A DNA stretch of 14,922 bases from a virus: UHGV virus genome UHGV-0216241, one strand, 5' to 3'. The translations under genes and the position numbers were made by a program. Of the stretch, positions 1 to 12,747 are shown piece after piece (position 1 is the first letter of the stretch; each line of letters starts with the position of its first letter). The notes under the pieces are model-generated. The model was given only the letters and a program-made list of their open reading frames with translations. It did not search any database and was not told the DNA's origin.

Positions 1-1755
1 AGATTGTACCGTAGTTCTTGTAGCTGATGATTGAGCAAAACGTATTATACCTAAGTTAGTACGTGCTGCTGCTGCCGTTGTAGCACCTGTACCACCATTG
101 GCAATAGGTAATACAGAACTTGTAGTAATGGATTCCATCCATGCAGTCCATGTACCACTATTGTATACGCGTGACCAACTACGTGACCCATTATGTGCCA
201 TATATACCTGTACACAACCTTCTACTCCATTTGCACCTGTTTGGTATACTTGCAAACAACCGGCTGTTTGTGATGGATAATTACGTGTAGTTAATGCGTT
301 AGCACTACCTGATTGCATATAAAAACCAGCTTTAGTGCCGCCTAATGTATTTAGATCCTCGGTAGTTAGTGTTGAAAAATTAGTATATGTTGCACTCAAA
401 TTAGCCCTAGCTGCTGCGGCAGTGCGAGCACCAGTACCGCCCTGACCAACTTCCAACGCTGTGGATAGAGATAATTTTGGCATAGTTACCGTTTTATCAA
501 TAGTGCTGTAAGTTAGAATATTAGGGCCGGATGTAGTTTCTTCGTGGAAACGGAAAGTGTTAGCATCTAATACTACCTGTATTTTATTTGGCGTGTCAGT
601 CTGTGAAAATGTTAGCGTAGGTGCTGCACTTTCTAAAAGTAGTGGATAACTTGCAGTAGGTTTAAAGGTTGCTACGTTGAAGTTATTAGTACCAGACCAT
701 GTATTCACCCCCGCCCCTAATAATGGAACTGTACTACCGGATGTACCGATATTATATGTTGCTGCGGTTCCTAGTCCTAAGTTAGTACGTGCTGTTGCTG
801 CCGTAGTTGCACCTGTACCGCCATTGGTGATAGGAATAATATCAAAATTTGCCGCACCTTTAATACCTAGTACGGTTTTTGCTGCTGCTACATCAGTTAA
901 ATCAGAAAGGTTACTAGCTGCTTTCAACTGTGCATCATTTGTTACATTTCCTAGTCCTACATCTGATTTAGTAATAGTAATATCTGCATTTAGTGCTTTA
1001 CCATTAATCTTACGTGTAATTGGTACATACTGATCACTAATCTGAGTTGCAGTAAGTATACGTGTCCATGCTGTATTTTGGTTCTTTGCATAGATTGCCA
1101 ATGTACCGGATTTAGTCATTGCAATACTGGAGAATGTACCATTATCAATAAGGCCAATTCCCATCATATCCGCACTAGCTGGATTATCTATGCGTGCTGC
1201 TGGTACTTTGATAAAACTGTTGCCATCTGGTAACTGTGGTTCGTACTGAGGTACTACGCCATTAGAGCCTACGCCATATGATCCTACAACTAGTCCGGTA
1301 CTCAATGGTGCTTGACCATCGCGTACTAGAACGTCGGTAGGGGTAAAGGTATATGTTTTAGTAACTACTGCGTCTTTATCACCAGCTAGACGAGCGGAAC
1401 TAATCATACCATTCACCATACTGTAGGAGATGATACCATCAGTTACGGCGTACTGTAGCGTTAGTTGGAACTCGGTCTGATCTTCGGTTGCTTGGTCTAA
1501 AAATGCGTGAGCGGTGCAATCTGGTACGTAGTTTACAACGATATCTACATTGTTTACGTTCTGTTCTGCTAATAGTTTCTCTGAAAATTCACTGTTATAT
1601 ACTTCAATAGTTTGTACTTGGCTATCAATACCGAATGAAGGCATCGCCGCCAATTCATTTACTAGTTCATTCCCTGCGTTATCGGGGATACGGTTCGCGG
1701 TGTCGTCATTATAAAATAATTTAAATCCACTCCCTGTAAAAATTTGATCTGCCAT
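1..1755 (-). CDS. Tail-fibre-like structural protein, 5'-partial (C-terminus lies beyond the window start); three internal copies of a GGTGA-TAA-AR-NLG repeat
   Basis: Minus-strand frame is open from ATG at 1755 to the window edge in every segment I hand-translated; it is absent from the ORF track because no stop falls inside the window. AGGAA Shine-Dalgarno sits ~8 nt upstream. The protein begins MADQIFTGSGFKLFYNDD and contains QGGTGARTAAAARANL, NGGTGATTAATARTNLGLG and NGGTGATTAAAARTNLG, which match my recollection of the tail-fibre repeat class. Lies directly downstream of the head genes. Confidence 0.6.
   Translation of the reverse strand, partial: MADQIFTGSGFKLFYNDDTANRIPDNAGNELVNELAAMPSFGIDSQVQTIEVYNSEFSEKLLAEQNVNNVDIVVNYVPDCTAHAFLDQATEDQTEFQLTLQYAVTDGIISYSMVNGMISSARLAGDKDAVVTKTYTFTPTDVLVRDGQAPLSTGLVVGSYGVGSNGVVPQYEPQLPDGNSFIKVPAARIDNPASADMMGIGLIDNGTFSSIAMTKSGTLAIYAKNQNTAWTRILTATQISDQYVPITRKINGKALNADITITKSDVGLGNVTNDAQLKAASNLSDLTDVAAAKTVLGIKGAANFDIIPITNGGTGATTAATARTNLGLGTAATYNIGTSGSTVPLLGAGVNTWSGTNNFNVATFKPTASYPLLLESAAPTLTFSQTDTPNKIQVVLDANTFRFHEETTSGPNILTYSTIDKTVTMPKLSLSTALEVGQGGTGARTAAAARANLSATYTNFSTLTTEDLNTLGGTKAGFYMQSGSANALTTRNYPSQTAGCLQVYQTGANGVEGCVQVYMAHNGSRSWSRVYNSGTWTAWMESITTSSVLPIANGGTGATTAAAARTNLGIIRFAQSSATRTTVQS
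50..840 (-). repeat. Intragenic repeat units of the tail-fibre-like gene
   Basis: DNA segments ~50-130 and ~760-840 are visibly similar (cctaagttagtacgtgctg...gcacctgtacc...ccattgg), with a third, more diverged copy near 420-470. All encode the GGTGA-TAA-AR-NLG peptide repeat. Confidence 0.6.
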
Positions 1756-1768
1756 CTTTTAATTCCTT

Positions 1769-2161
1769 TTATTTTAAAGTTGCTACAATATTTATTGCAA
1801 AAGATAGCGATTGATAACCAGTTGATGGATCTGTTACTAGTTCACTGTCTGCTACGTCATAACTATGAAGTTGTACACCATTATTACCAAATTCCATGAT
1901 TGTATTAGTACGGAAGTAATCGAAAATAGTACCGAAGGTGTCAGCGGGTAAATTTATTGAAGGTTCTGGTACTAATAGGAATTGAAATGTAAAGTTACCC
2001 ATTTGATTCTGATTATTGTAGTTTACAGATTGGTAGGTTTGATTAGTTGAAACGAGAATAAAGAGATCACGCCCTGCTGCAATATTCATTGCCTTTCTAA
2101 TTGGCATGATATTATTTAAACTGTCTCTAATAGTTTTCTGTACTTGTGTTAGTAGATTCAT
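1769..2161 (-). CDS. Small virion protein, probable head completion or head-tail connector (hypothetical)
   Basis: ORF-track entry 1769..2218; I prefer the internal ATG at 2161 (MNLLTQVQ...), which abuts the upstream stop (TAATATG) and avoids a 56-nt overlap. Position is immediately after the capsid gene. Function is inferred from synteny only. Confidence 0.45.
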   Translation of the reverse strand: MNLLTQVQKTIRDSLNNIMPIRKAMNIAAGRDLFILVSTNQTYQSVNYNNQNQMGNFTFQFLLVPEPSINLPADTFGTIFDYFRTNTIMEFGNNGVQLHSYDVADSELVTDPSTGYQSLSFAINIVATLK

Positions 2162-2162
2162 A

Positions 2163-2483
2163 TTACCACCCGTAATTATTAATTGTAGATGGTCTAATGA
2201 ATACTTCACTAACACCACTTAAATCATTATAGATATTGTATACAGTGTAGTTAGTACCCTGTACGCCTACTACGGAATCAATAGCGATACTGTAAGTAGA
2301 TAGGTCATCAGTCTTTACTGATAGAAATGTTTCTGTACTTTCTACTAGCCCTTCAGTACCACTATCTACGACTACGGGGTGATGATCTACGATTGCCGTA
2401 AATCTCGCCCCGTTAATTGTGATAGGTTCACCAAAGGCATTTAGAAAAGTAGAATCAATTTGATTGCTAGTAAAATGCCTCAT
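2163..2483 (-). CDS. Small virion protein, probable head-tail adaptor or head completion (hypothetical)
   Basis: 106-aa ORF starting 12 nt after the stop of the capsid gene, same strand, tightly packed. Function is inferred from position only. Confidence 0.45.
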   Translation of the reverse strand: MRHFTSNQIDSTFLNAFGEPITINGARFTAIVDHHPVVVDSGTEGLVESTETFLSVKTDDLSTYSIAIDSVVGVQGTNYTVYNIYNDLSGVSEVFIRPSTINNYGW

Positions 2484-2495
2484 AGTGTTTTATCC

Positions 2496-4388
2496 TTATG
2501 GTTTTAGTTGTAGTTGTACAAATGCTTCCTCGTGTGCGATAGCTACATCTAGGTATTGGAAACTACGAATTGCAATAGTTTGTGCTGCACGGTAGGTAGT
2601 ATCATCAAAATCTAGTTCTTGGCCTTCATTCCAGTTAGCAAAGATTAGCTCAGAGAAATCACCGATTAGAATGGTATCTGCTGCTACGAAAGTAGATTCA
2701 ATTACACGTACTTCGTCATTCAACCACATGTCATAACGATGACCTGCTACCATTGCTACGGCTGCGGTGTTATTCAATACTGCGGTTTGACGTAGTTTTG
2801 CAAGCATAGAAGGATGCACGATAGCTACACAACGATTAATATCAACGTTTTTAGCGGAGATAGCTTCGATTGCTGCCTGTACGTCTGCTTCTGATACTTG
2901 ACCAGATACTGCGGTTTGTTTTACTGGTACAGTAGTAGCGATTTGTGCAAATACTGCGGATTCTAGACCGTTAGAGCATTGGCGTAGTAGCTCGTCGGTG
3001 ACGTAACGTTCGGTAGCTGCGTTGCTTAGTAGCATTGCTTTAGTGATTTTGATACCTGCTGCGAACATGCGAGGCTTTAGAGTGATTTTATCGAAATCAT
3101 TACGACCATCATCTACCGCCTCATCTTCTGCGTAGAATTTAGCGGTAGGAGTCATACCTTTAGAACGTGGGATAGAGAAATTGCCACGTCCGGCAAGCCC
3201 TCCGAACACGGTAACATCAAGTTGACCTAGTACAGTTTGAGCGAGTAGTTGACGAATATAGCTGTCTGCTAGTTCTTCTTTTACAAGACCCGCCGCTGTC
3301 ACGGTTGAAGTGGTATCAGCGGTGCTACGTACCATTGCGTTTAGATCTGCATTATAACCGCGAGCACCTTTTTCGAAAGATTCTAGATCGTGTGCTTCAC
3401 CTTTTAGACTGCGTAGACCTTCGTTAATTAGAGATTTCTTTTCCATTTTTTTGATATCCTTATCAATTGATTTATTATCTGTATTTAGTGAGCGTTTAAA
3501 GTCTTCTACGCTTACACCGTTTTTAATTGCTTCTTCTGTACTAACGCCTAGTACCGAAGAAATAGATTGAAGTTCGCGTACACGCTTATCTTCTACTTCT
3601 TTATTTATGCTTTCCTGAATATCAGTTACTGCAATAGAACGTTCTTCTACTAATTCAGGTTGTACTTCCTGTACTTCCTCAATTACTTCCGGTTCTTCTA
3701 CTACTTCTACTGATTCTTCCGGTACTGGTACTTCTTCTTCGATTACTTCGGCTTGTACTTCTTCTTGTTGTACTTCCTCAATAACTTCAACTTCATGTAC
3801 TAGTTCTTCTTTTTGTTCTGGTTCCATTTGGGGTTGATCCTCTAAAGTAATTTCATCATTACTATTTAGTGATCTTCCCACACCTACGCTATTGTCTGCC
3901 GGAGTGGATACGCTAGATACTTCGTAGGGTTGCCATTTTGAAACGATTAGATCATTACCGTCTAGGTAGTAATCTAGAATGTTATAACCTACGGATACTT
4001 TAGGGCGAATACCTTCTACGATCATACCGAAGATAGTATTTGCAGTACCTAAAGCACTAAAACGTACAGTAGCACGACATACCTTATCCATATCTACGCG
4101 AGCATTTTCAACTATACCAACTTGACGCATTGCATCATGTTCTACTAGTACAGGGGCACCGTCATTAAGACGGCTTAAATCCACGTTCTCAGGACTACAT
4201 AAAAGGATCTCATTATAGAGAGTCCCTTTAATATCGCGTACTACTGGAACTTCACTTGCAAAAGAGAGTTCTACCGTTCTGTCAGCTTCATCAATTGCAT
4301 TATTGATTTGCGTTATATTGATCGCCCTCGTCTGGTTCTTGTTCAATTCCATTTTCTTTATTTTCCTTGTTGATTTCTTCCATGACAA
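2496..4388 (-). CDS. Prohead protease - acidic linker/scaffold - HK97-fold major capsid protein fusion
   Basis: 630-aa ORF. The N-terminus (LSFASEVPVVRD...APVLVEHD) resembles HK97-type prohead protease motifs. The middle is a Glu/Val-rich low-complexity block (EEVQQEEVQAEVIEEEVPVPEE...). The C-terminal ~300 aa has an HK97-like capsid character. Lies directly downstream of the portal. The start is uncertain (ATG 4388 or 4352); both overlap the portal 3' end. Confidence 0.7.
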   Translation of the reverse strand: MSWKKSTRKIKKMELNKNQTRAINITQINNAIDEADRTVELSFASEVPVVRDIKGTLYNEILLCSPENVDLSRLNDGAPVLVEHDAMRQVGIVENARVDMDKVCRATVRFSALGTANTIFGMIVEGIRPKVSVGYNILDYYLDGNDLIVSKWQPYEVSSVSTPADNSVGVGRSLNSNDEITLEDQPQMEPEQKEELVHEVEVIEEVQQEEVQAEVIEEEVPVPEESVEVVEEPEVIEEVQEVQPELVEERSIAVTDIQESINKEVEDKRVRELQSISSVLGVSTEEAIKNGVSVEDFKRSLNTDNKSIDKDIKKMEKKSLINEGLRSLKGEAHDLESFEKGARGYNADLNAMVRSTADTTSTVTAAGLVKEELADSYIRQLLAQTVLGQLDVTVFGGLAGRGNFSIPRSKGMTPTAKFYAEDEAVDDGRNDFDKITLKPRMFAAGIKITKAMLLSNAATERYVTDELLRQCSNGLESAVFAQIATTVPVKQTAVSGQVSEADVQAAIEAISAKNVDINRCVAIVHPSMLAKLRQTAVLNNTAAVAMVAGHRYDMWLNDEVRVIESTFVAADTILIGDFSELIFANWNEGQELDFDDTTYRAAQTIAIRSFQYLDVAIAHEEAFVQLQLKP

Positions 4389-6298: not shown

Positions 6299-8218
6299 TT
6301 ATTTAAAGAAGCCACCACCTTTACGCGGCCTTATTACTCGTTTTGGAGTTGGCTTAGTTGGTGTTTCTTCTGTATTTACTTCTTTATTTAGTCCTGCTTT
6401 CTCTTTTTGTTTCGCGTTGTATTCCCTTAGTTGTCGGAATGGTTGACTACCTAATTTAGATAGATACCACTGGAAACATATAAGCGAGTAATTAAGACAA
6501 TCAAGGGTTTCATTTCTCGCCGAACTAACTTTCTTCACCCATACCCAGGCACCAGCCTTTATTACTCGCTTCTCGGAAGTAAGCTGAATAAAGTAATCAT
6601 CCGGTACTGAATGACTGAAATGTATTTGTACTTCCTTACTATTTTCACTATCGGATACAGCACGGTTGAGTAATTGACGGACGTTTGATTTGCCTAAGTT
6701 TACGTTAAGGTTAATCAGGGAGTGACCACCAGCGGTACTACCTTTGAATAATGGGTTAGAGTTAGACGTACCACCCTTGATAGGTTTAAAGATAGTAGAA
6801 TTACTGCAATAGCGATATACGGTACTAGTTGCGTTGCCGTTACTACTATCGACGAATCCAGCTAATACTTTAAGTGGTTTACCCGAACGTGTTTTCAATG
6901 GGGCGTTAGCAAAGGCCGTTAGCTTATTCCATGCTGGGGCTTCGATCTTCGTACAGTCAATTGCGTATATACTGCGATGATCTAAAACATAGAGATTCTT
7001 CTCACTTACTCCTAGTGTACTTATCTCCAATCTGTCAAGCTGCTGGTCAACGCCGAATACCACCCCTAGTACGTCATCGGGGATATTATTGATATCTATT
7101 TCACTATCTCTTAGGTTCTCCAATAATACTAAATCATGGTCGGTATTCTCTTTATCAATATATGGCAGTCCTAGTACGTTGTTATAGAATGATGCCAGGT
7201 CAAATGTATAATGTGCTTCTGCAAAGTCTGCTACAATTGATTTTATGGAATTGATGGGGGAATAGAGTCTAGATATGTGATAGCCCATTATATCCGTTAC
7301 TTCCGGTGCTGTTACTATCCATTCACCTTTACGGATCATTCGTACACGTTCTGCTTCTGTTATTACATTATTACACTTAGGACATTCTAGCCTTGCAGTG
7401 TCTGCATCTGGAATACGACGGCGACCACCTTCAATAATTTTCCATTCGAATTTAACGTTTTCGAATACCATTTCGTGTGAGTGGTTACAGTGGGGGCAAG
7501 GTACATAAAACTTCTGTTTATTACTTTGTTCGTACTGTTGGGTAATCAGGTCATGCTCATCTAGTGGAGTAGAACAACACATAATCAGGGGGTTACTGAA
7601 TGCTTTCGTTCTCTGTTCTGCCAGCTTCAAGGGATTGCCTTCTTCGCCGTCGGCGTTGACATTGGATATCTCATCCAAAAATACGCGAGGGGCCGTTAGA
7701 CCACGTAGTGAAGCACTACTACCCAATGACAGGAAGTAGGTAAACGTTCCATCTAAATTTTGTTGTGTCTTGTCATTGTTCGTATAGTTCTTGTCGTTCT
7801 TATTACTAACGAGATTTTTCAGTACCGAACATGCTTCGATGACTGCTTGCCATTTACCAGTCCTAAATTTACTAGTAGTACCACCAGTAGCACCACCAAA
7901 GATCATGTTACTAGGATCATTGGCTAGGAAGTAGTACATACTATTCTGTAGTACCGTTGTTTTGAGGAGTTGAGCACTGCTCATGAGCACCACCTTACGG
8001 ACGCGTGGATTTACGATATCGTTGATGGGTTTATGCTGAAAGGCGAATAATTTGACACGCTGCCCCTGTAGTTCGCCGTCCGGGAAGACTAGATTACTCT
8101 CTACCCATTCAGCGGGTAGTTGTTTCTTCGGAGGTAGGATCGACTTCGCCGCCCTCGTTAGTATCTTCATCATCTTCTGGTAGTTGGTCTTCATATGTTC
8201 CCTCATATTCATAGCCAC
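6299..8218 (-). CDS. Terminase large subunit (GpA-type, cos phages)
   Basis: 639-aa ORF, the size of lambda gpA. Has a Walker-A-like FGGATGGTTSK, two Cys pairs (CPHCNH...CPKCNN) and sits directly after the small-subunit gene. The start may be an internal Met (8194, 8173 or 8170); any choice overlaps the small-subunit gene. Confidence 0.8.
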   Translation of the reverse strand: MAMNMREHMKTNYQKMMKILTRAAKSILPPKKQLPAEWVESNLVFPDGELQGQRVKLFAFQHKPINDIVNPRVRKVVLMSSAQLLKTTVLQNSMYYFLANDPSNMIFGGATGGTTSKFRTGKWQAVIEACSVLKNLVSNKNDKNYTNNDKTQQNLDGTFTYFLSLGSSASLRGLTAPRVFLDEISNVNADGEEGNPLKLAEQRTKAFSNPLIMCCSTPLDEHDLITQQYEQSNKQKFYVPCPHCNHSHEMVFENVKFEWKIIEGGRRRIPDADTARLECPKCNNVITEAERVRMIRKGEWIVTAPEVTDIMGYHISRLYSPINSIKSIVADFAEAHYTFDLASFYNNVLGLPYIDKENTDHDLVLLENLRDSEIDINNIPDDVLGVVFGVDQQLDRLEISTLGVSEKNLYVLDHRSIYAIDCTKIEAPAWNKLTAFANAPLKTRSGKPLKVLAGFVDSSNGNATSTVYRYCSNSTIFKPIKGGTSNSNPLFKGSTAGGHSLINLNVNLGKSNVRQLLNRAVSDSENSKEVQIHFSHSVPDDYFIQLTSEKRVIKAGAWVWVKKVSSARNETLDCLNYSLICFQWYLSKLGSQPFRQLREYNAKQKEKAGLNKEVNTEETPTKPTPKRVIRPRKGGGFFK

Positions 8219-8663
8219 CGATTTCTTCTAGCTGGCGGTCTATCTTGTCCTGTAATTTAATTTTTAATTCTAATGCATCCTGTGATTCGAATAATTCAAC
8301 ATAACTTGACGCGGGAATACTTCTTAGTACCTGTCGTAGTTGGTAGAAGTATTGGGATAAAGTTTGCTGTACTACTGCTACCGGAATTAGTTCTCCCGAT
8401 TGCTGGCGTAGTTCTAATTCTTTTAGGTCTGCTTCTGCTTCTAGTTTGCGTAGTGTGGCTTTATGGATCATTCCCTTCACATCACCATTACGCATTGGTT
8501 CGATTACGTTTGCTAGTAACCAGTCGTCTACTAATTTTTTAGGCCAGGTAATATCCAGTCCTTTGCCAGACCAGATACGGGATACAGTAGAATGCTCTAC
8601 GCCGAATCGGTCGGCGATTTCTTGCCATGAATATCTGGTTCCATCGTCTTTATTCTTTGCCAT
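8109..8663 (-). CDS. Terminase small subunit (HTH DNA-binding N-terminus, acidic C-tail)
   Basis: 184-aa ORF immediately upstream of the large subunit. The N-terminus has a helix-turn-helix-like stretch (SWQEIADRFGVEHSTVSRIW) and the C-terminus is acidic (EDDEDTNEGGEVDPTSEE). AGGAAA Shine-Dalgarno lies 7 nt upstream of ATG 8663. Confidence 0.75.
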   Translation of the reverse strand: MAKNKDDGTRYSWQEIADRFGVEHSTVSRIWSGKGLDITWPKKLVDDWLLANVIEPMRNGDVKGMIHKATLRKLEAEADLKELELRQQSGELIPVAVVQQTLSQYFYQLRQVLRSIPASSYVELFESQDALELKIKLQDKIDRQLEEIGGYEYEGTYEDQLPEDDEDTNEGGEVDPTSEETTTR

Positions 8664-8978
8664 GTGATTTCCTATTCACTTATTATTCACTTTCCATTGA
8701 TTGGTATTTTCTATCTATTTCGGTACTGATAGGTTTTATCTATAAATTTGTTTGTTTTATGTAAAATTTCTCACGTATTTTTATTATAACTCGCGGCCAA
8801 ACTTCGCATAGTTTGGCATATTCAGGAGAACCTACCGAAAGTCAAGGGAGTGATTCCATTTTTTTATCTTTTTTTTGATATAAAGCACAAATTGCACAAA
8901 ATCTTGATAGCTTCTACCTATCAGTACCGAAGGATACCATCATCCTATTATTCACTGTTTATGCATTGTTTATGCAAT
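8664..8978. other. Candidate packaging-site region (cos/pac), non-coding, upstream of the terminase small subunit
   Basis: ~315 bp with no credible ORF. Contains a 16-bp inverted repeat (8719-8734 TTCGGTACTGATAGGT and its reverse complement at 8916-8931), a perfect 8-bp-stem hairpin (8796-8817), two T8 tracts (8858-8865, 8869-8876) and a direct repeat TTTATGCA x2 (8953-8971). Location matches cos/cosB in lambda-like phages. Confidence 0.45.
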
Positions 8979-9365
8979 CTACTTGAGTATCACCATATTA
9001 CTAACGATTACATCACAACGATAAGAGATAGGCAGACCATCTACGGTACGGTACTGTAGGATCTCGTCGCGTAGTTCTCTTAGTCTGTTTAGGTGTGGTA
9101 GTTCGCTACCGTTGAATCTATCTAGTTCTCGTATGGGGTAATTAGTACGGCCTATGGTGAAGCGTGAGTAGTTTAATGTAATGTATTTATACTTAAGCGT
9201 TAGTGTATAGGTATCTATGAATAGCTCGTAACCGTCCTGTGTGATGATATGAGCGGTTATTAGCTTATCCTTGCGTGATGGTATGTATCCTGATTCCTGT
9301 CGGCCTGTGGTGCTTTCTATGGCCTTATACGTTCCATCAGGGAAGTGTAGGTAGATTGTATTCAT
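8979..9365 (-). CDS. Hypothetical protein (128 aa)
   Basis: ORF with an AGGAG Shine-Dalgarno upstream of ATG 9365. No recognisable motifs. Confidence 0.55.
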   Translation of the reverse strand: MNTIYLHFPDGTYKAIESTTGRQESGYIPSRKDKLITAHIITQDGYELFIDTYTLTLKYKYITLNYSRFTIGRTNYPIRELDRFNGSELPHLNRLRELRDEILQYRTVDGLPISYRCDVIVSNMVILK

Positions 9366-9371
9366 GGTGGG

Positions 9372-9398
9372 ATACTCCTATTGCATGTATAGGAGTAT
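9372..9398 (-). promoter_or_regulatory. Shine-Dalgarno-sequestering hairpin in the 5' leader of the 128-aa gene
   Basis: Perfect 10-bp inverted repeat ATACTCCTAT (9372-9381) and ATAGGAGTAT (9389-9398) with a 7-nt loop. On the minus-strand mRNA the AGGAG Shine-Dalgarno lies in the 3' arm, paired to ACUCCU. Confidence 0.45.
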
Positions 9399-9410
9399 TT
9401 AGGCAGGAAT

Positions 9411-9437
9411 AAAAAAGCCCACTGTGATTAGTGGGCT
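9411..9437 (-). terminator. Rho-independent terminator after the 232-aa gene
   Basis: Minus-strand hairpin with stem AGCCCACT / AGTGGGCT (9416-9423 and 9430-9437), a 6-nt loop, followed on the minus strand by a run of five U then AUU (9411-9415 on plus). Begins 7 nt after the stop at 9444. Confidence 0.7.
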
Positions 9438-9443
9438 AGTGGA

Positions 9444-10142
9444 TTAGTAAGAATGTATATAATGTGAGATTGGTATAGTACCGCCAGTGTAGGTACTAAT
9501 TTCTAATTCCTTCGCTACTAAATCAAGTATATCCAAGTGTTGCTGTATATCTTGATGTGGTGTTCCATTATTATCTAATAGGTTATGGGGAAAGAGTATA
9601 CTAATTTGTGCTATTTCTCCTACCATAGAAAGATCATTACCATGAATGTAATTTATTTTACGTTCATCGTGGTTATGTTCATGGTATATAGTGAACTTCT
9701 CATTACCTACATCATTTAGGCGACCATAACGCCAGCTAACTTGAAAGATACTACCCATATCATGTACAGTAATTGAATCGTCATTACTACCATCGATAGT
9801 AACATCAACAATATAATTACCGTGATTGATGCGGTAGTCTTCGATGCTTCCCGTTGGTAGATTTGGTTCGGATAGTTCTAGTACGGTTTCATTTTCATCA
9901 AAGCGATAGGAGGCTAATTCTATTGGTAGCATATTGTAAGTATCTAATTCATTATAGCTAATCATGCGGGTAGATTCATTCCATGTATTACCCATGAGTA
10001 CACCAACAAAATTACCGTTATGATCGCGGTGATCACCATCACCCATAATAAATGGAGTGTTACGCGTATACATTACAATCTTACCCGCACGACGAACAAC
10101 AATACCGTTAGTATGTTTAGTGAGAGTTACATCAAAAATCAT
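9444..10142 (-). CDS. Hypothetical His/Asp-rich protein (232 aa), moron-like cassette gene
   Basis: ORF with a GAGGAA Shine-Dalgarno 6 nt upstream and its own terminator. Has His-rich patches (GDGDHRDHNG, HEHNHDERK). No family recognised. Confidence 0.6.
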   Translation of the reverse strand: MIFDVTLTKHTNGIVVRRAGKIVMYTRNTPFIMGDGDHRDHNGNFVGVLMGNTWNESTRMISYNELDTYNMLPIELASYRFDENETVLELSEPNLPTGSIEDYRINHGNYIVDVTIDGSNDDSITVHDMGSIFQVSWRYGRLNDVGNEKFTIYHEHNHDERKINYIHGNDLSMVGEIAQISILFPHNLLDNNGTPHQDIQQHLDILDLVAKELEISTYTGGTIPISHYIHSY

Positions 10143-10164
10143 TATACTTTCCTCATTAGATTTT

Positions 10165-10187
10165 ATTATAGACCACTGTGATTAGTG
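10165..10187 (-). promoter_or_regulatory. Putative promoter -10 (TATAAT) plus a 15-bp repeat element upstream of the 232-aa gene
   Basis: Minus-strand TATAAT at 10170..10165, ~22 nt upstream of ATG 10142; the -35 is poor. The adjacent 15-mer CCACTGTGATTAGTG (10173-10187) is identical to 9419-9433 inside the downstream terminator. Confidence 0.3.
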
Positions 10188-10199
10188 TGTGTATTATTA

Positions 10200-10421
10200 T
10201 TAGTTAGTATCGAACAATGGCTTTATTAGTGGTATCTCTTCTTCCCCTTCAATTGGTTTACCGTGATGATCTGCTACGCGTACTATCGTATTTTCATACG
10301 GATTAATACTATAATAGTTTTGATGTTCTTCGGTACTAACAATGATACGTTCAATGATCATATCACTATCGCTCACTGAATCAGTGAGATTACGGATTGC
10401 ATCTAATAATTTCTCTAACAT
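10200..10421 (-). CDS. Hypothetical small protein (73 aa)
   Basis: ORF tightly packed (9-nt gap) downstream of the secreted-protein genes on the same strand. Confidence 0.5.
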   Translation of the reverse strand: MLEKLLDAIRNLTDSVSDSDMIIERIIVSTEEHQNYYSINPYENTIVRVADHHGKPIEGEEEIPLIKPLFDTN

Positions 10422-10430
10422 GTTTACCCC

Positions 10431-10817
10431 TTATTTTATTTTAACGCAGTTTTGAAAGTAGTAATTACGAGTATCAGATCTCAATAAGAAGATAAAAGTA
10501 ATATCGTTTTGCTCTTTACTTCCCATTGTTGCAAGGAAGTATCGCTGCCTATCATTATCATAAGCCATTGTCATTGAATCATTAGATTCTATTGGTCCGG
10601 TGGCGTGAGTCATTGCACCGAAGTTAAGGATAAAACCATCACTATTAACTTTAGCGTGACCTGCACCAGAATAAGAAGATTTTTCTACTGGAGTATCACC
10701 CAGCATTTCAACTACTTTCACATCACATTGATACAATCCCTGCTCTGGTAGAGAGTGAGTGTTAGCCAGTACCGAAGGAGATACTAACAGTAATGCAGAT
10801 ACGATAACCTTTTTCAT
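10431..10817 (-). CDS. Secreted small protein with cleavable signal peptide, two conserved Cys (paralog 1)
   Basis: N-terminus MKKVIVSALLLVSPSVLA is a classic Sec signal peptide. AAGGAA Shine-Dalgarno 5 nt upstream. Shares architecture and motifs (LPxxGLYxC ... FxNC) with the adjacent gene. Confidence 0.65.
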   Translation of the reverse strand: MKKVIVSALLLVSPSVLANTHSLPEQGLYQCDVKVVEMLGDTPVEKSSYSGAGHAKVNSDGFILNFGAMTHATGPIESNDSMTMAYDNDRQRYFLATMGSKEQNDITFIFLLRSDTRNYYFQNCVKIK

Positions 10818-10826
10818 TTCTATTCC

Positions 10827-11219
10827 TTATTCAATAATACAATTGGAGAAGTTCAAAAATACGGGATTATTCTCATTGCTGACCATATACTGTGTTTTAC
10901 CATTGATTGCACTAATAATAATATCGTACTGGTCAGTATCTACGGCATAGGCCATCAGGCGACCGCTTTTAAGTTTTGAAACAGGGCTGAATGAAATATT
11001 CATATCCCTAAACTTCACACTAACAGCACGGTTATCAATACTCACATAACCAGTCATACCATAATAACCAGTCTTTACTACTCGCTTTCCTACCTGTTCC
11101 CACGATTCAACACCGCAACGATATAAACCATCATCAGGGAGTATTACATTTACTGCCAGTACCGAAGGGGCTACTAACAGTAATGCAGACAGTACAATCT
11201 TTTTCATAAATTCATCCAT
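10827..11219 (-). CDS. Secreted small protein with signal peptide (paralog 2); true start probably ATG at 11207
   Basis: MKKIVLSALLLVAPSVLA signal peptide begins at the fifth codon. The mature region has the same Cys spacing as the downstream paralog. Confidence 0.6.
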   Translation of the reverse strand: MDEFMKKIVLSALLLVAPSVLAVNVILPDDGLYRCGVESWEQVGKRVVKTGYYGMTGYVSIDNRAVSVKFRDMNISFSPVSKLKSGRLMAYAVDTDQYDIIISAINGKTQYMVSNENNPVFLNFSNCIIE

Positions 11220-11325
11220 TCGGGATTATCTACTTTATCAGAATCAATGGCATTGTTGATGCCAGATAATGACAGTGTTTTTGATTACGGCGACTGCAAT
11301 TTAATAAGTAGGGTTAATGTATTTT

Positions 11326-11331
11326 ATTATA
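11326..11331 (-). promoter_or_regulatory. Possible extended -10 promoter element (TGaTATAAT) for the secreted-paralog operon
   Basis: Minus-strand TGATATAAT in the 11208-11386 intergenic gap; no good -35. Confidence 0.25.
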
Positions 11332-11386
11332 TCATAGTAATATGCAGTCCCCATAACTAAAAGTACGGCAAATATTGTTTTCTTCA

Positions 11387-11767
11387 TCACAGATTATCGT
11401 CTATATAATTAGTTGGTTTCGATAACTCAAATTCTGTACCGTAATTATTTGAACGATCAACTATCTTAGTGGTGTTTTTGTGGGGGCCGTGGGCTTTATG
11501 TTCTTCGAAGCTATGAATATTTGTAAGTCGGTCGGCGGCAATAATACAGCTACCAGTAGATGGGCGTTCTTCACCCAATAGCATAGGCTGACAATCACTA
11601 CTGAATTGTGGGCGATACTCTTTACCACCATTTACGGGGAATAATACTAGTGTACGACCGTTAATATCACCTACTACGGCTTCATTCATAAAAGCAGGCG
11701 TTATAGTAGTACAGCCAGTAGTGATTGTAGCCGTAGCGAGTACAGCTAGGGTAAAGAGATTTTTCAT
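11387..11767 (-). CDS. Exported protein, possible lipoprotein (126 aa)
   Basis: N-terminus MKNLFTLAVLATATITTGC is a hydrophobic signal sequence ending in Cys (imperfect lipobox TTGC). AAGGA Shine-Dalgarno 7 nt upstream. A perfect TATAAT (11819..11814) lies upstream. Confidence 0.6.
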   Translation of the reverse strand: MKNLFTLAVLATATITTGCTTITPAFMNEAVVGDINGRTLVLFPVNGGKEYRPQFSSDCQPMLLGEERPSTGSCIIAADRLTNIHSFEEHKAHGPHKNTTKIVDRSNNYGTEFELSKPTNYIDDNL

Positions 11768-11833
11768 TAGTAAATCCTTGTAGTGATTGTGTGAGGTGAT
11801 GTTTGATGTGAATTATTATAGCTATGATATTTA

Positions 11834-11870
11834 GTAATAGCTACTACTTTATTTGTGTAGTAGCTATTAT
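11834..11870 (-). promoter_or_regulatory. Stem-loop with 12-bp perfect inverted repeat between the 227-aa gene and the exported-protein gene; terminator or operator
   Basis: AATAGCTACTAC (11836-11847) and GTAGTAGCTATT (11857-11868) with a 9-nt loop. Sits right after the stop at 11876 and overlaps the -35 region of the TATAAT at 11814-11819. There is no clean U-tract on the minus strand. Confidence 0.4.
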
Positions 11871-11875
11871 TCTTC

Positions 11876-12559
11876 TTATACTACCTTATAGGCTTTAGTA
11901 ACAAGCTCTTTGAAGTCTTGCTCGTCGGCCTGTTTAGGATACTGCTGCTTGTACTCGGCGTAGTATTCCTGTGCTTTCGCGTTCATCTTCCCTTTCTGGT
12001 TTAGATGGAACTCATGACCGTTCCACTTCGCATTAAGCGGGTATTTTTTGCGATAGTCCTCACTATACGCCCGTAAAAACTCGTCAACGTCCGATAGTTC
12101 GGGATTCTTCTTAACCAACTGAATGTATACTTCATCCTTGAGTAATGCCGCTGGTAACTTCTTATTGATTACATTATAGGTTCTTCTTTCGTCCTTCTTG
12201 CTATCAACTATGACTACTTCGAATATCTTATTGCCGTTCGGCTTCGATGCTTTTTGTGGTATGGAAGCAGGAGAAGATACAGCCAGTGTAGAAAGCAGTT
12301 CCTCTACACTAGAGAAGCTACCAGACTCTTGTACAAGTGATTCTAATAGTTTCTTAGCTTCGTTTAGTCGCTCGGTACGTAGTGTGCTTACATAGTCCTT
12401 CACTTCGCCCAGGCGTTGAATGAGAGTGTCTAGTTCTTCTTCGTTGACGTTTGCCAGTGCATTGCGGCCTGTTGCGTCGGCAGTCAACATACCTACATGA
12501 AAATCATCATTAAGAATCGTACTGATCATTTTTGCGGTAATGCTTTTAATGCTTCCCAT
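11876..12559 (-). CDS. Hypothetical protein (227 aa), coiled-coil-like N-terminal half and Lys/Tyr-rich C-terminal half
   Basis: ORF with a GAGG Shine-Dalgarno 7 nt upstream of ATG 12559. No family recognised. Confidence 0.55.
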   Translation of the reverse strand: MGSIKSITAKMISTILNDDFHVGMLTADATGRNALANVNEEELDTLIQRLGEVKDYVSTLRTERLNEAKKLLESLVQESGSFSSVEELLSTLAVSSPASIPQKASKPNGNKIFEVVIVDSKKDERRTYNVINKKLPAALLKDEVYIQLVKKNPELSDVDEFLRAYSEDYRKKYPLNAKWNGHEFHLNQKGKMNAKAQEYYAEYKQQYPKQADEQDFKELVTKAYKVV

Positions 12560-12747
12560 AGTACAGCCTCATTTGGTTTTAACAGTAACTGAGTACAATC
12601 GGTTAGTTTAACTATATTTGCAAGTGGGATCTCCTTCAAAGTGTTTATCATCTCACTGGTAAGACCAAATTCACCTAGTAGATCTTCTTCGGAAAGTTTC
12701 CGTACTGTATCTATATAGAGTACGTTTAGCTCATGTAGATCATTCAT
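12526..12747 (-). CDS. Hypothetical small protein (73 aa)
   Basis: ORF whose start overlaps the upstream gene's stop (ATGA at 12744-12747), indicating translational coupling. Confidence 0.5.
   Translation of the reverse strand: MNDLHELNVLYIDTVRKLSEEDLLGEFGLTSEMINTLKEIPLANIVKLTDCTQLLLKPNEAVLWEALKALPQK

Follow-up and report, generated by a model that had tools for sequence, protein, structure and literature searches.

Three minus-strand genes encode a predicted lipoprotein (LIPO) and two secreted paralogs (PAR1 and PAR2) in a temperate siphophage of E. coli that is uncultured and has packaging genes of the lambda type. Export of all three phage-encoded proteins is supported by their signal sequences. 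LIPO and PAR are two new, unannotated families of a familiar kind, and together their genes form an optional, moron-type insertion between conserved neighbors. The reading that we favor, without giving it quite an even chance, is that the cassette supplies envelope proteins of the lysogen or infected cell that block attack through the envelope, above all phage entry.

The cassette lies in a window of 14,922 nt (the whole stretch of DNA analyzed), between the early genes and terS and just 5′ of the DNA-packaging genes; terS, a gpA-type terL, a lambda-family portal, and a protease-capsid fusion are found downstream of it. The same element occurs as a ~33 kb prophage inside E. coli yegD, with a serine recombinase. 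The phage belongs to a lineage without a sequenced isolate, and the best match to its TerL in a set of 50,697 phage genomes is 37% identical. A megablast of the window against phage genomes gave nothing useful, and Rfam and tRNA scans of the window were uninformative. The carrier phage encodes a J-like tail-tip protein. When the cassette was compared with the type of J-like protein, only three contigs had both, and the comparison is confounded by overall relatedness.

Export signals were called by hydropathy and a (−3, −1) heuristic, and the lipobox was called by rule. Among ORFs of at least 45 aa between positions 8664 and 11900, the heuristic flags exactly LIPO, PAR1, and PAR2, in agreement with the three minus-strand signal-peptide genes described in the first-pass annotation. 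The ORF list contains exactly these genes, with PAR1 as 10827–11219 (130 aa) and the other two as in Table 1. For PAR1, the likelier start is the MKK codon (11207), the one chosen by RefSeq in a near-identical prophage (L014), while the upstream ATG at 11219 would give the 130-aa product. The genes are not strictly consecutive, as a 28-codon ORF and 167 nt separate LIPO from PAR1. The ATG of this ORF overlaps the LIPO stop codon (TGATG), and its sequence is identical in L001, L002, and L014; the homologous DNA found 3′ of the L003/L004 paralog encodes a non-hydrophobic peptide. Its standing as a real gene is doubtful.

Table 1. Features of the cassette and its 5′ flank, in window coordinates
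Feature	Position	Strand	Basis
LIPO, 126-aa lipoprotein precursor	11387..11767	-	ORF list, lipobox, homologs
28-codon ORF MKKTIFAVLLVMGTAYYYDIIKYINPTY	11301..11387	-	read from sequence
PAR1, 126-aa secreted precursor, leader MKKIVLSALLLVAPSVLA	10827..11207	-	ORF list, BLASTP, RefSeq start
PAR2, 128-aa secreted precursor, leader MKKVIVSALLLVSPSVLA, mature protein 110 aa	10431..10817	-	
Leader-coding repeat, PAR1 copy, 53-nt direct repeat, 87% identity to PAR2 copy	11155..11207	-	repeat family D1
Leader-coding repeat, PAR2 copy	10765..10817	-	repeat family D1, codon-level comparison
Perfect 13-bp inverted repeat I4, 9-nt loop, between 227-aa gene and LIPO	11835..11869	-	
Perfect TATAAT hexamer, 48 nt 5′ of LIPO ATG, poor −35 region	11815..11820	-	

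Searches of PHROG, Pfam, and NCBIfam return no match for any of the three proteins, a run of PADLOC and NCBIfam on them returned nothing, and neither the two paralogs nor LIPO gave anything informative in tblastn against phage genomes. In these family searches, the proteins match no virion or lysis family. Given that none of them has a PHROG match and that the cassette is missing from relatives whose structural modules are intact, we reject a role in the virion.

In LIPO, the signal peptide spans codons 1–18, and the codon of the predicted lipid-modified Cys19 falls at 11711–11713. The cysteine that the first-pass annotation had noticed at the end of this signal sequence belongs to a lipobox (ITTG↓C) and is conserved in 32/32 homologs, where it follows G or A (C in one). 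The residue at +2 is T, S, G, or N and never D (n = 32), and on this basis LIPO should be sorted to the outer membrane by the Lol pathway. Mature LIPO (108 aa, ~12 kDa) consists of a folded core of ~77 residues, which holds two invariant cysteines (C59 and C74), and a disordered tail ending in a conserved I-x-D-N-L. The AlphaFold2 model is of moderate confidence (pLDDT of 67, with residues 78–108 below 50) and matches no known fold; LIPO is unrelated to PAR1 and PAR2. The family comprises 41 clusters and is restricted to this one lineage of Enterobacterales phages. We find it in 8 of 185,579 species genomes, 7 of them assigned to Enterobacterales, and always 1–2.5 kb upstream of terS. The dN/dS values of LIPO (0.16–0.30) indicate that it evolves under purifying selection. 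Across genera, its identity (31–45%) tracks that of TerL (44–52%), which looks like steady vertical inheritance rather than an arms race and thus speaks against a role in exclusion.

PAR1 and PAR2 are indeed paralogs, as first annotated, with 32% identity (BLASTP, E 3e-19) and a common SALLLV(S/A)PSVLA leader, LPxxGLYxC, and F(x)NC. Signal cleavage is likely at VLA↓N and VLA↓V. The family is tiny, with 9 representatives among 1.84 billion proteins. The conserved cysteines that had been pointed out near the mature N-terminus and at the C-terminus (C31 and C123 in the PAR1 precursor) are both invariant in a 9-sequence mature alignment that includes the most distant secreted members, while in a 10-sequence alignment the first is invariant and the second nearly so. 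The PAR2 model, which is of moderate confidence (pLDDT of 74.6), is an all-beta barrel of eight strands; the first strand carries Cys13 and the last Cys106, and a disulfide probably joins the two. In fold class, this modeled barrel matches MliC/PliC/ACP, in which a beta1–beta8 disulfide is a conserved staple (PMC5507604).

MliC/PliC, Neisseria ACP, and Brucella PhiA are periplasmic lysozyme inhibitors with which we compared PAR, and in MliC/PliC/ACP, as in the PAR model, the first and last strands of a barrel carry cysteines. The MliC/PliC motifs SxSGAxY and YxxxTKG (PMC5507604), however, are absent from PAR, as is the Pfam MliC model, so PAR cannot be assigned to that family; PAR members match none of the relevant Pfam models at E up to 10. 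A sequence SYSGAGH does occur inside model strand 2 of PAR2, only in that protein, and is not kept across the family.

The two PAR genes are much more alike in their leaders than in their mature parts. The leader DNA is 85% identical (46/54 nt), with the same codon used at 13/14 shared residues, whereas the mature part is 42% identical. Together with a clean natural chimera, this near-identity points to recombination or gene conversion. The first-pass annotation had read the duplication and divergence as diversifying selection, which our analysis does not bear out: close alleles differ by 0–3 substitutions, their dN/dS of 0.14–0.56 comes from only 1–3 substitutions and lies below 1, PAR1 and PAR2 are too diverged for a meaningful dS, and the identity of the leaders is at the level of DNA.

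When 13 close IMG/VR relatives are compared, the full cassette is present in two (L001 and L002), a partial one in seven (L003, L004, L006–L009, and L013), and neither family in four (L005, L010, L011, and L012); LIPO is absent from L005–L012. In the wider set, PAR occurs without LIPO in L006–L009 and L018, while LIPO occurs alone or with other partners in L015, L022–L026, and L044–L050. Because each is found without the other, the three genes are not an obligate system. The conserved neighbors, namely a 227-aa gene, a 73-aa gene, and terS, are present with or without the cassette, which is thus an optional insertion. In relatives, the same slot carries an Old-family defense nuclease (E 1.4e-74), DUF3800 and PLD-like proteins, and further small exported proteins with two cysteines. 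In most of the contexts examined, the direct neighbor of LIPO is either a multi-pass membrane protein or a small exported protein with two cysteines, the latter coming from one of at least three families that are unrelated to one another. Homology of PAR to one other exported slot family, EXP-B, is rejected by hhalign (probability of 0.04%).

As the proteins are exported, belong to neither the virion nor the lysis genes, and are encoded in a variable, defense-bearing slot, an envelope role such as superinfection exclusion is reasonable. To this extent, the role suggested by the first-pass annotation is upheld; the homology to Llp and Cor that could have accompanied it is not found. In our proposal, LIPO would be placed in the outer membrane by Lol, with a small disulfide-bonded domain and a flexible, conserved tail facing the periplasm, and, like Llp, Cor, and Rtp45, would bind a component of the outer membrane from within the periplasm. 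PAR1 and PAR2 would be Sec-exported periplasmic barrels of ~110 residues and eight strands, probably closed by a disulfide, that bind and neutralize a protein sent into the periplasm by an invader. A candidate target is a tail-associated peptidoglycan hydrolase, as hit by T4 Spackle (gp61.3), an exported periplasmic protein that binds the gp5 tail lysozyme of a superinfecting phage and protects the cell (PMC7677548); PAR would do so with a scaffold of the MliC/PliC/ACP shape. Spackle is like PAR in being phage-encoded, Sec-exported, and periplasmic, and we propose it as a working analogy. LIPO and the barrels would then be independent modules with a compartment and a genomic slot in common rather than an obligate complex. 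A bolder version, which we regard as quite unlikely, would make PAR a new family of phage periplasmic peptidoglycan-hydrolase inhibitors that act as Spackle does, but with a disulfide-stapled barrel like that of MliC/PliC/ACP, and whose binding surfaces are swapped between prophages by recombination behind a conserved leader; with the I-x-D-N-L tail of LIPO docking on an envelope machine, the cassette would be a modular, two-layer exclusion system.

Cor of phi80 and N15 is an exclusion lipoprotein aimed at FhuA. T5 Llp likewise acts on FhuA (PMC9586334), while Rtp45 of phage Rtp acts on LptDE (PMC12685063). Like these proteins, LIPO would be a phage lipoprotein on the periplasmic face of the outer membrane; it is also dispensable for virion formation, carried by a siphophage, and equipped with a cysteine pair of its own. 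In contrast to their ~6–8 kDa, mature LIPO has ~12 kDa and a 30-residue disordered tail, and sequence and fold searches reveal no similarity. Indeed, neither LIPO nor PAR resembles any characterized exclusion protein in sequence or fold, which weighs against exclusion. So does the location of LIPO: llp and rtp45 adjoin the gene of the receptor-binding protein, whereas LIPO adjoins terS. In the complete prophage L014, ~17 kb separate the LIPO gene (21203–21583) from the J-like and tail-tip fiber genes (204–3510), and terS is 2 kb from it.

Envelope exclusion proteins decide which phages infect a lysogen, and to our knowledge only a handful (Llp, Cor, Rtp45, Spackle, and SieA) are understood at the molecular level. 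Should the barrels turn out to inhibit invading muralytic enzymes, or LIPO to block a receptor, this short list would gain new scaffolds, and finding them in the prophage content of a strain would help to predict host range in phage therapy. Otherwise, the two families are an ordinary pair of uncharacterized morons.

The fold class of PAR and its first- and last-strand cysteines, shared with MliC/PliC/ACP, would equally suit lysogenic conversion against non-phage attack, with barrels that serve as periplasmic inhibitors of, or immunity proteins against, host lysozyme, peptidoglycan-targeting T6SS effectors, or bacteriocins and with LIPO as a Bor-like, unrelated envelope fitness factor. We consider this unlikely, although several observations fit it. 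Structural matches of the PAR model include the T6SS immunity protein BtaiB, the slot of L011 holds an exported protein with an LprI (lysozyme-inhibitor) domain (E 2.7e-7), and a Klebsiella relative has an Hcp-family gene ~1.8 kb upstream of its LIPO gene. As tandem, diverged, exported paralogs that recombine, PAR1 and PAR2 also resemble orphan immunity gene arrays. Moreover, lambda bor sits directly upstream of the terminase genes, and LIPO is similarly an optional lipoprotein gene in a short interval upstream of terS in a phage with lambda-type packaging. Unlike bor, however, LIPO shares its strand with the late genes and its expression in the lysogen is only putative, and none of 34 LIPO family members matches Pfam Lambda_Bor at E up to 10, so Bor homology is rejected. 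More generally, no LIPO or PAR member scanned matches Pfam MliC, LprI, or Bor at that threshold. Both families were found only inside this prophage lineage, with no T6SS or bacteriocin locus beside either, and Old and DUF3800 mark the other slot cargo as anti-phage.

That the genes have no common function and are unrelated passengers gathered at a hot spot of recombination, with some in decay and their shared export a coincidence, is in our view similarly improbable. The separate occurrence of LIPO and PAR, the 5′-truncated LIPO remnant in L003 and L004, and the debris-like 28-codon ORF are all consistent with it. The purifying selection indicated for LIPO is not, and the flanks of LIPO are richer in envelope proteins than chance cargo should give. 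In L013, furthermore, a LIPO–PAR pair is flanked by a TATAAT element and a terminator-like hairpin, with AAATATCAT...TATAAT, similar to the element in our window, upstream of a LIPO gene of 38% identity.

The lysis module of the prophage is at the opposite end, ~20 kb from the cassette, and includes a T4-type lysozyme, which matches phrog_13211 (E 1.4e-32) and the endolysin phrog_7 (E 1.8e-14), and a weak holin match. Like spanins (Rz1-type o-spanins and T1 gp11-type u-spanins), LIPO is predicted to be a phage outer-membrane lipoprotein, but it has no adjacent or embedded transmembrane i-spanin and no C-terminal helix or membrane anchor, shows no homology to spanins, lies outside the lysis module, and is missing in many relatives, and we therefore reject a lysis cassette or spanin. 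A service to the phage's own lytic cycle in any form, be it lysis timing as an antiholin or anti-endolysin, spanin-like disruption, or the sparing of progeny from debris, is very unlikely when both families are missing from many close relatives whose structural and packaging modules are intact, even though the genes lie on the same strand just 5′ of the packaging and structural genes, the position of LIPO is kept while TerL has fallen to 44% identity, and a periplasmic inhibitor could act on the phage's own T4-lysozyme-like muramidase.

All cassette genes are co-directional with the lytic and structural genes, and promoter-like sites in the window are no more frequent than in shuffled sequence; expression of the cassette in the lysogen is thus only putative. 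The TATAAT hexamer 5′ of LIPO is possibly a promoter of its own, though the consensus scan missed it. Within the window, no terminator is found 3′ of PAR2. The RNA of inverted repeat I4 folds into a hairpin (−16.5 kcal/mol, z of −4.5) without a U-tract; it could mark the end of a transcript or a processing site, or serve as an operator.

Three minus-strand genes of the window encode exported proteins: the lipoprotein LIPO and the two secreted paralogues PAR1 and PAR2, which together make up a phage-borne, optional cassette of one outer-membrane-type lipoprotein and two predicted periplasmic barrels. The ORF list reproduces exactly the three minus-strand genes proposed in the first-pass annotation, and all three genes are flagged as signal-bearing by the simple hydropathy and (-3,-1) rule script on which our signal-peptide calls are based, as the only such ORFs of at least 45 aa in 8664-11900. 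Family conservation offers stronger support than this script for the predicted export. In LIPO, whose signal had been noted to end in Cys, this lipobox-type cysteine follows G or A (C in one) and precedes T/S/G/N in all 32 homologues examined. In the paralogues, both cysteines are invariant in a 9-sequence mature-protein alignment that includes the most distant secreted members, while in a 10-sequence alignment the first is invariant and the second nearly so. The proposed paralogy of PAR1 and PAR2 is borne out by 32% identity in an alignment spanning their full length (E 3e-19), in which the expected leader SALLLV(S/A)PSVLA, the LPxxGLYxC motif, and F(x)NC at the C-terminus are all seen. Comparison of LIPO with PAR1 and PAR2 revealed no relationship. 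For PAR1, the MKK codon is the likelier start, as it is the RefSeq choice in a near-identical prophage and leaves no acidic residues before the hydrophobic core. The genes had been described as consecutive; they do share a strand, but LIPO and PAR1 are split by a 28-codon ORF (11301-11387) plus a 167-nt gap. This minus-strand ORF (MKKTIFAVLLVMGTAYYYDIIKYINPTY), whose ATG start shares bases with the LIPO stop codon (TGATG), is probably a remnant rather than a gene, because the homologous DNA after the PAR gene of relatives L003 and L004 encodes a non-hydrophobic peptide.

Coordinates of the cassette genes, candidate upstream signals, and cargo of the same slot in relatives
Feature	Location	Strand	Remarks
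LIPO	window 11387-11767	-	126 aa, ORF list
PAR1	window 10827-11219	-	130 aa, ORF list; likelier MKK start at 11207
PAR2	window 10431-10817	-	128 aa, ORF list
Perfect 13-bp inverted repeat, 9-nt loop	window 11835-11869	-	RNA hairpin -16.5 kcal/mol, z -4.5, no U-tract
Perfect TATAAT	window 11815-11820	-	after inverted repeat, between 227-aa gene and LIPO; candidate promoter element
Old-family nuclease	L003 3914-5734	-	PADLOC E 1.4e-74
DUF3800 protein	L025 6388-7509	-	slot cargo
PLD-like protein	L015 8516-9445	-	slot cargo
Exported LprI lysozyme-inhibitor-domain protein	L011 4947-5675	+	Pfam E 2.7e-7

The remaining window genes, all on the minus strand, encode a small terminase, a gpA-type large terminase (TerL), a head-tail joining protein, a lambda-family portal, and a protease-capsid fusion. 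Among 50,697 deposited phage genomes, none has DNA resembling that of the window, and TerL identity reaches 37% at best. The same element is found as a ~33 kb prophage in yegD in two complete E. coli genomes, adjoining a large serine recombinase. At the far end of this prophage from the cassette, past the tail genes, are its T4-type lysozyme (phrog_13211, E 1.4e-32, and endolysin phrog_7, E 1.8e-14) and a weak match to holins; the cassette itself is set between a conserved 227-aa early gene and the small terminase gene terS. The three genes are thus judged to be neither a lysis module nor structural. The only recognisable muramidase of the prophage is a stand-alone, 150-aa T4 gp5/e-type lysozyme (L017 4476-4928, minus strand), whose gene is on the opposite strand, adjoining the attachment site and far from the packaging genes. 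In the window, the 630-aa major capsid protein (2496-4388, minus strand) is fused to an N-terminal protease/scaffold region, and the longest terL ORF (6299-8218, minus strand) overlaps terS (8109-8663, minus strand) by 110 nt.

The window proteins and family HMMs were compared with further loci and with 13 IMG/VR relatives whose TerL is 74-98% identical. All three genes together were seen in no group but the closest (L001, L002, and the E. coli prophage L014). In L003 and L004, a single PAR gene is kept along with a LIPO remnant truncated at its 5' end; in L013, LIPO at 38% identity precedes a very diverged PAR; L006-L009 have a lone PAR of 114 aa; in L018, a multi-pass membrane protein comes after PAR; and L019-L021 combine LIPO with another PAR allele and a second lipoprotein. 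With the same queries, neither family was found in L005, L010, L011, or L012. Some small exported protein usually flanks LIPO; as LIPO and PAR assort independently, we do not propose an obligate complex. The cassette slot is enriched for defence and envelope cargo, which in relatives also includes at least two more unrelated families of small exported two-cysteine proteins, and this pattern marks the cassette-terS interval as a hot spot for defence or accessory genes and envelope morons. At 9444-10142 (minus strand), the window has a 232-aa gene with no family match that is unique to it among its closest relatives, which carry other genes at this place. Bracketed by a 10/12 promoter-like site and the region's only convincing intrinsic terminator (10165-10193, 9416-9437), it looks like a separate, classic moron. 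In a Klebsiella relative, DUF8209, DUF1493, and Hcp-family (T6SS_HCP) genes (L025/L026 2851-4159) lie ~1.8 kb upstream of LIPO.

A profile search places LIPO in a family of 41 clusters, all 'hypothetical' and none with a Pfam domain; those with a source name are from Escherichia, Citrobacter, Enterobacter, Kosakonia, and Klebsiella. Among 185,579 species, each represented by one genome, only 8 carry the family; seven are assigned to Enterobacterales, and the remaining one, a soil MAG, gives a weak match. Wherever the flanking DNA is long enough, LIPO lies 1-2.5 kb upstream of a terS of the same phage supergroup, with TerL only 44-52% and LIPO 31-45% identical to those of the window. LIPO is thus an old gene of this phage lineage, stable in position though frequently lost. 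Invariant residues include F26, M27, Y51, P53, F55, C59, C74, and R80, and most members end in a variable linker followed by a conserved I-(P/D)-D-N-(L/I). The gene directly before LIPO in a sister sub-lineage encodes a conserved cytoplasmic protein of 169-185 aa (L015 5444-6001, L022 5481-5990, L025 5460-5990) with a weak EAL-domain match (E 0.013, below threshold), and upstream in the window, a 73-aa protein (12526-12747, minus strand) has a weak FlhD-like match (E 0.006, below threshold), a curious pairing of themes.

The PAR family is very small, with 11 clusters in a word-indexed search. Among 1.84 billion representatives, exhaustive searching with HMMER gave 9 matches at E <=0.001, including two with an N-terminal membrane anchor replacing the cleavable leader and one spurious repeat protein. 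Lower-scoring matches of similar size and compartment were the T6SS immunity protein BtaiB (6.5), Brucella PhiA (6.3), Salmonella PliC (6.1), gonococcal ACP (6.0), and Brucella PliC (5.7). MliC/PliC/ACP proteins are eight-stranded barrels with a preserved beta1-beta8 disulfide, and SxSGAxY and YxxxTKG are the defining motifs of MliC/PliC proper (PMC5507604). As modelled, PAR is like them in barrel architecture but lacks both motifs and any Pfam model match, and membership in MliC/PliC was rejected on these grounds. We treat the resemblance as one of working principle, and this likeness to lysozyme inhibitors provides a testable lead.

We infer that the cassette protects the envelope, and we tentatively favour superinfection exclusion, one of the roles that the first-pass annotation named for phage-encoded exported proteins and lipoproteins. 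By analogy with Llp and Rtp45, which act on FhuA and LptDE, respectively (PMC9586334, PMC12685063), LIPO would exert its effect on the outer membrane from the periplasmic side, while the PAR barrels, like T4 Spackle, which neutralises gp5 lysozyme (PMC7677548), may neutralise an invader protein acting in the periplasm. Exported and lipoprotein morons are of a familiar kind; the LIPO and PAR families themselves, from a phage lineage without a sequenced isolate, are undescribed. Protection against non-phage attack, for example by lysozyme, T6SS effectors, or bacteriocins, appears unlikely. That the independently assorting genes are unrelated passengers with no common function is similarly improbable, and it is very doubtful that they serve the lytic cycle of the phage itself, whose lysis genes lie apart from the cassette.

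The initial interpretation is partly supported: its other part, diversifying selection of the paralogues, is not shown, since close alleles differ by few substitutions and dN/dS is below 1 (0.16-0.30 in LIPO); the data point instead to recombination. The leader-coding DNA of PAR1 and PAR2 is a 53-nt direct repeat with 87% identity (46/54 nt at the codon level, with the same codon at 13 of the 14 shared residues), and the mature parts have 42% DNA and 22% protein identity. At the DNA level, the PAR1 leader also matches the leader of the L019 allele at 100% identity, with mature parts at 57%. An exact chimera is seen in the database protein P0008, where PAR1 residues 1-69 run into residues 66-133 of the L019-type allele (L019 7001-7396), with the crossover at a shared VSVK motif. 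Leader identity and chimera show recombination and gene conversion. In phage pairs with portal and terS dS of 0.19-0.45, dS is 0-0.024 for PAR and 0-0.146 for LIPO, which we attribute to ordinary mosaicism because similarity across the entire early region exceeds that across the structural region (95-97% versus 91-93%). The single PAR of L003 (3134-3511) and L004 (1443-1820) ends in ...NCNLIDNL, like the LIPO C-terminus ...YIDDNL (window 11387-11420), and is followed by the same MKKTI... ORF as LIPO, placing a recombination joint right after the PAR 'NC' codons. In Scandinavium, the gene after LIPO belongs to EXP-B, an exported family unrelated to PAR (L044 7360-7746, L005 4911-5297). The EXP-B leader (MKKLLLIAPLVFSSSVLA) is about 67% identical to PAR1 leader DNA by manual count on the alignment, and leaders of distant true PAR homologues are at about 50%, below that of EXP-B. 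This likeness may hint at leader-mediated cassette exchange or may reflect only signal-peptide composition.

In the window, the perfect inverted repeat and TATAAT precede LIPO. Upstream of its diverged LIPO, L013 has a similar AAATATCAT...TATAAT, and a terminator-like hairpin follows its LIPO-PAR pair. Against such signals, no terminator was found after PAR2 in the window, consensus promoter matches there are no commoner than in shuffles, and in a sister sub-lineage LIPO abuts the preceding gene. The right arm of the inverted repeat, GTAGTAGCTATT, is also present upstream of LIPO in the Pluralibacter locus L047.
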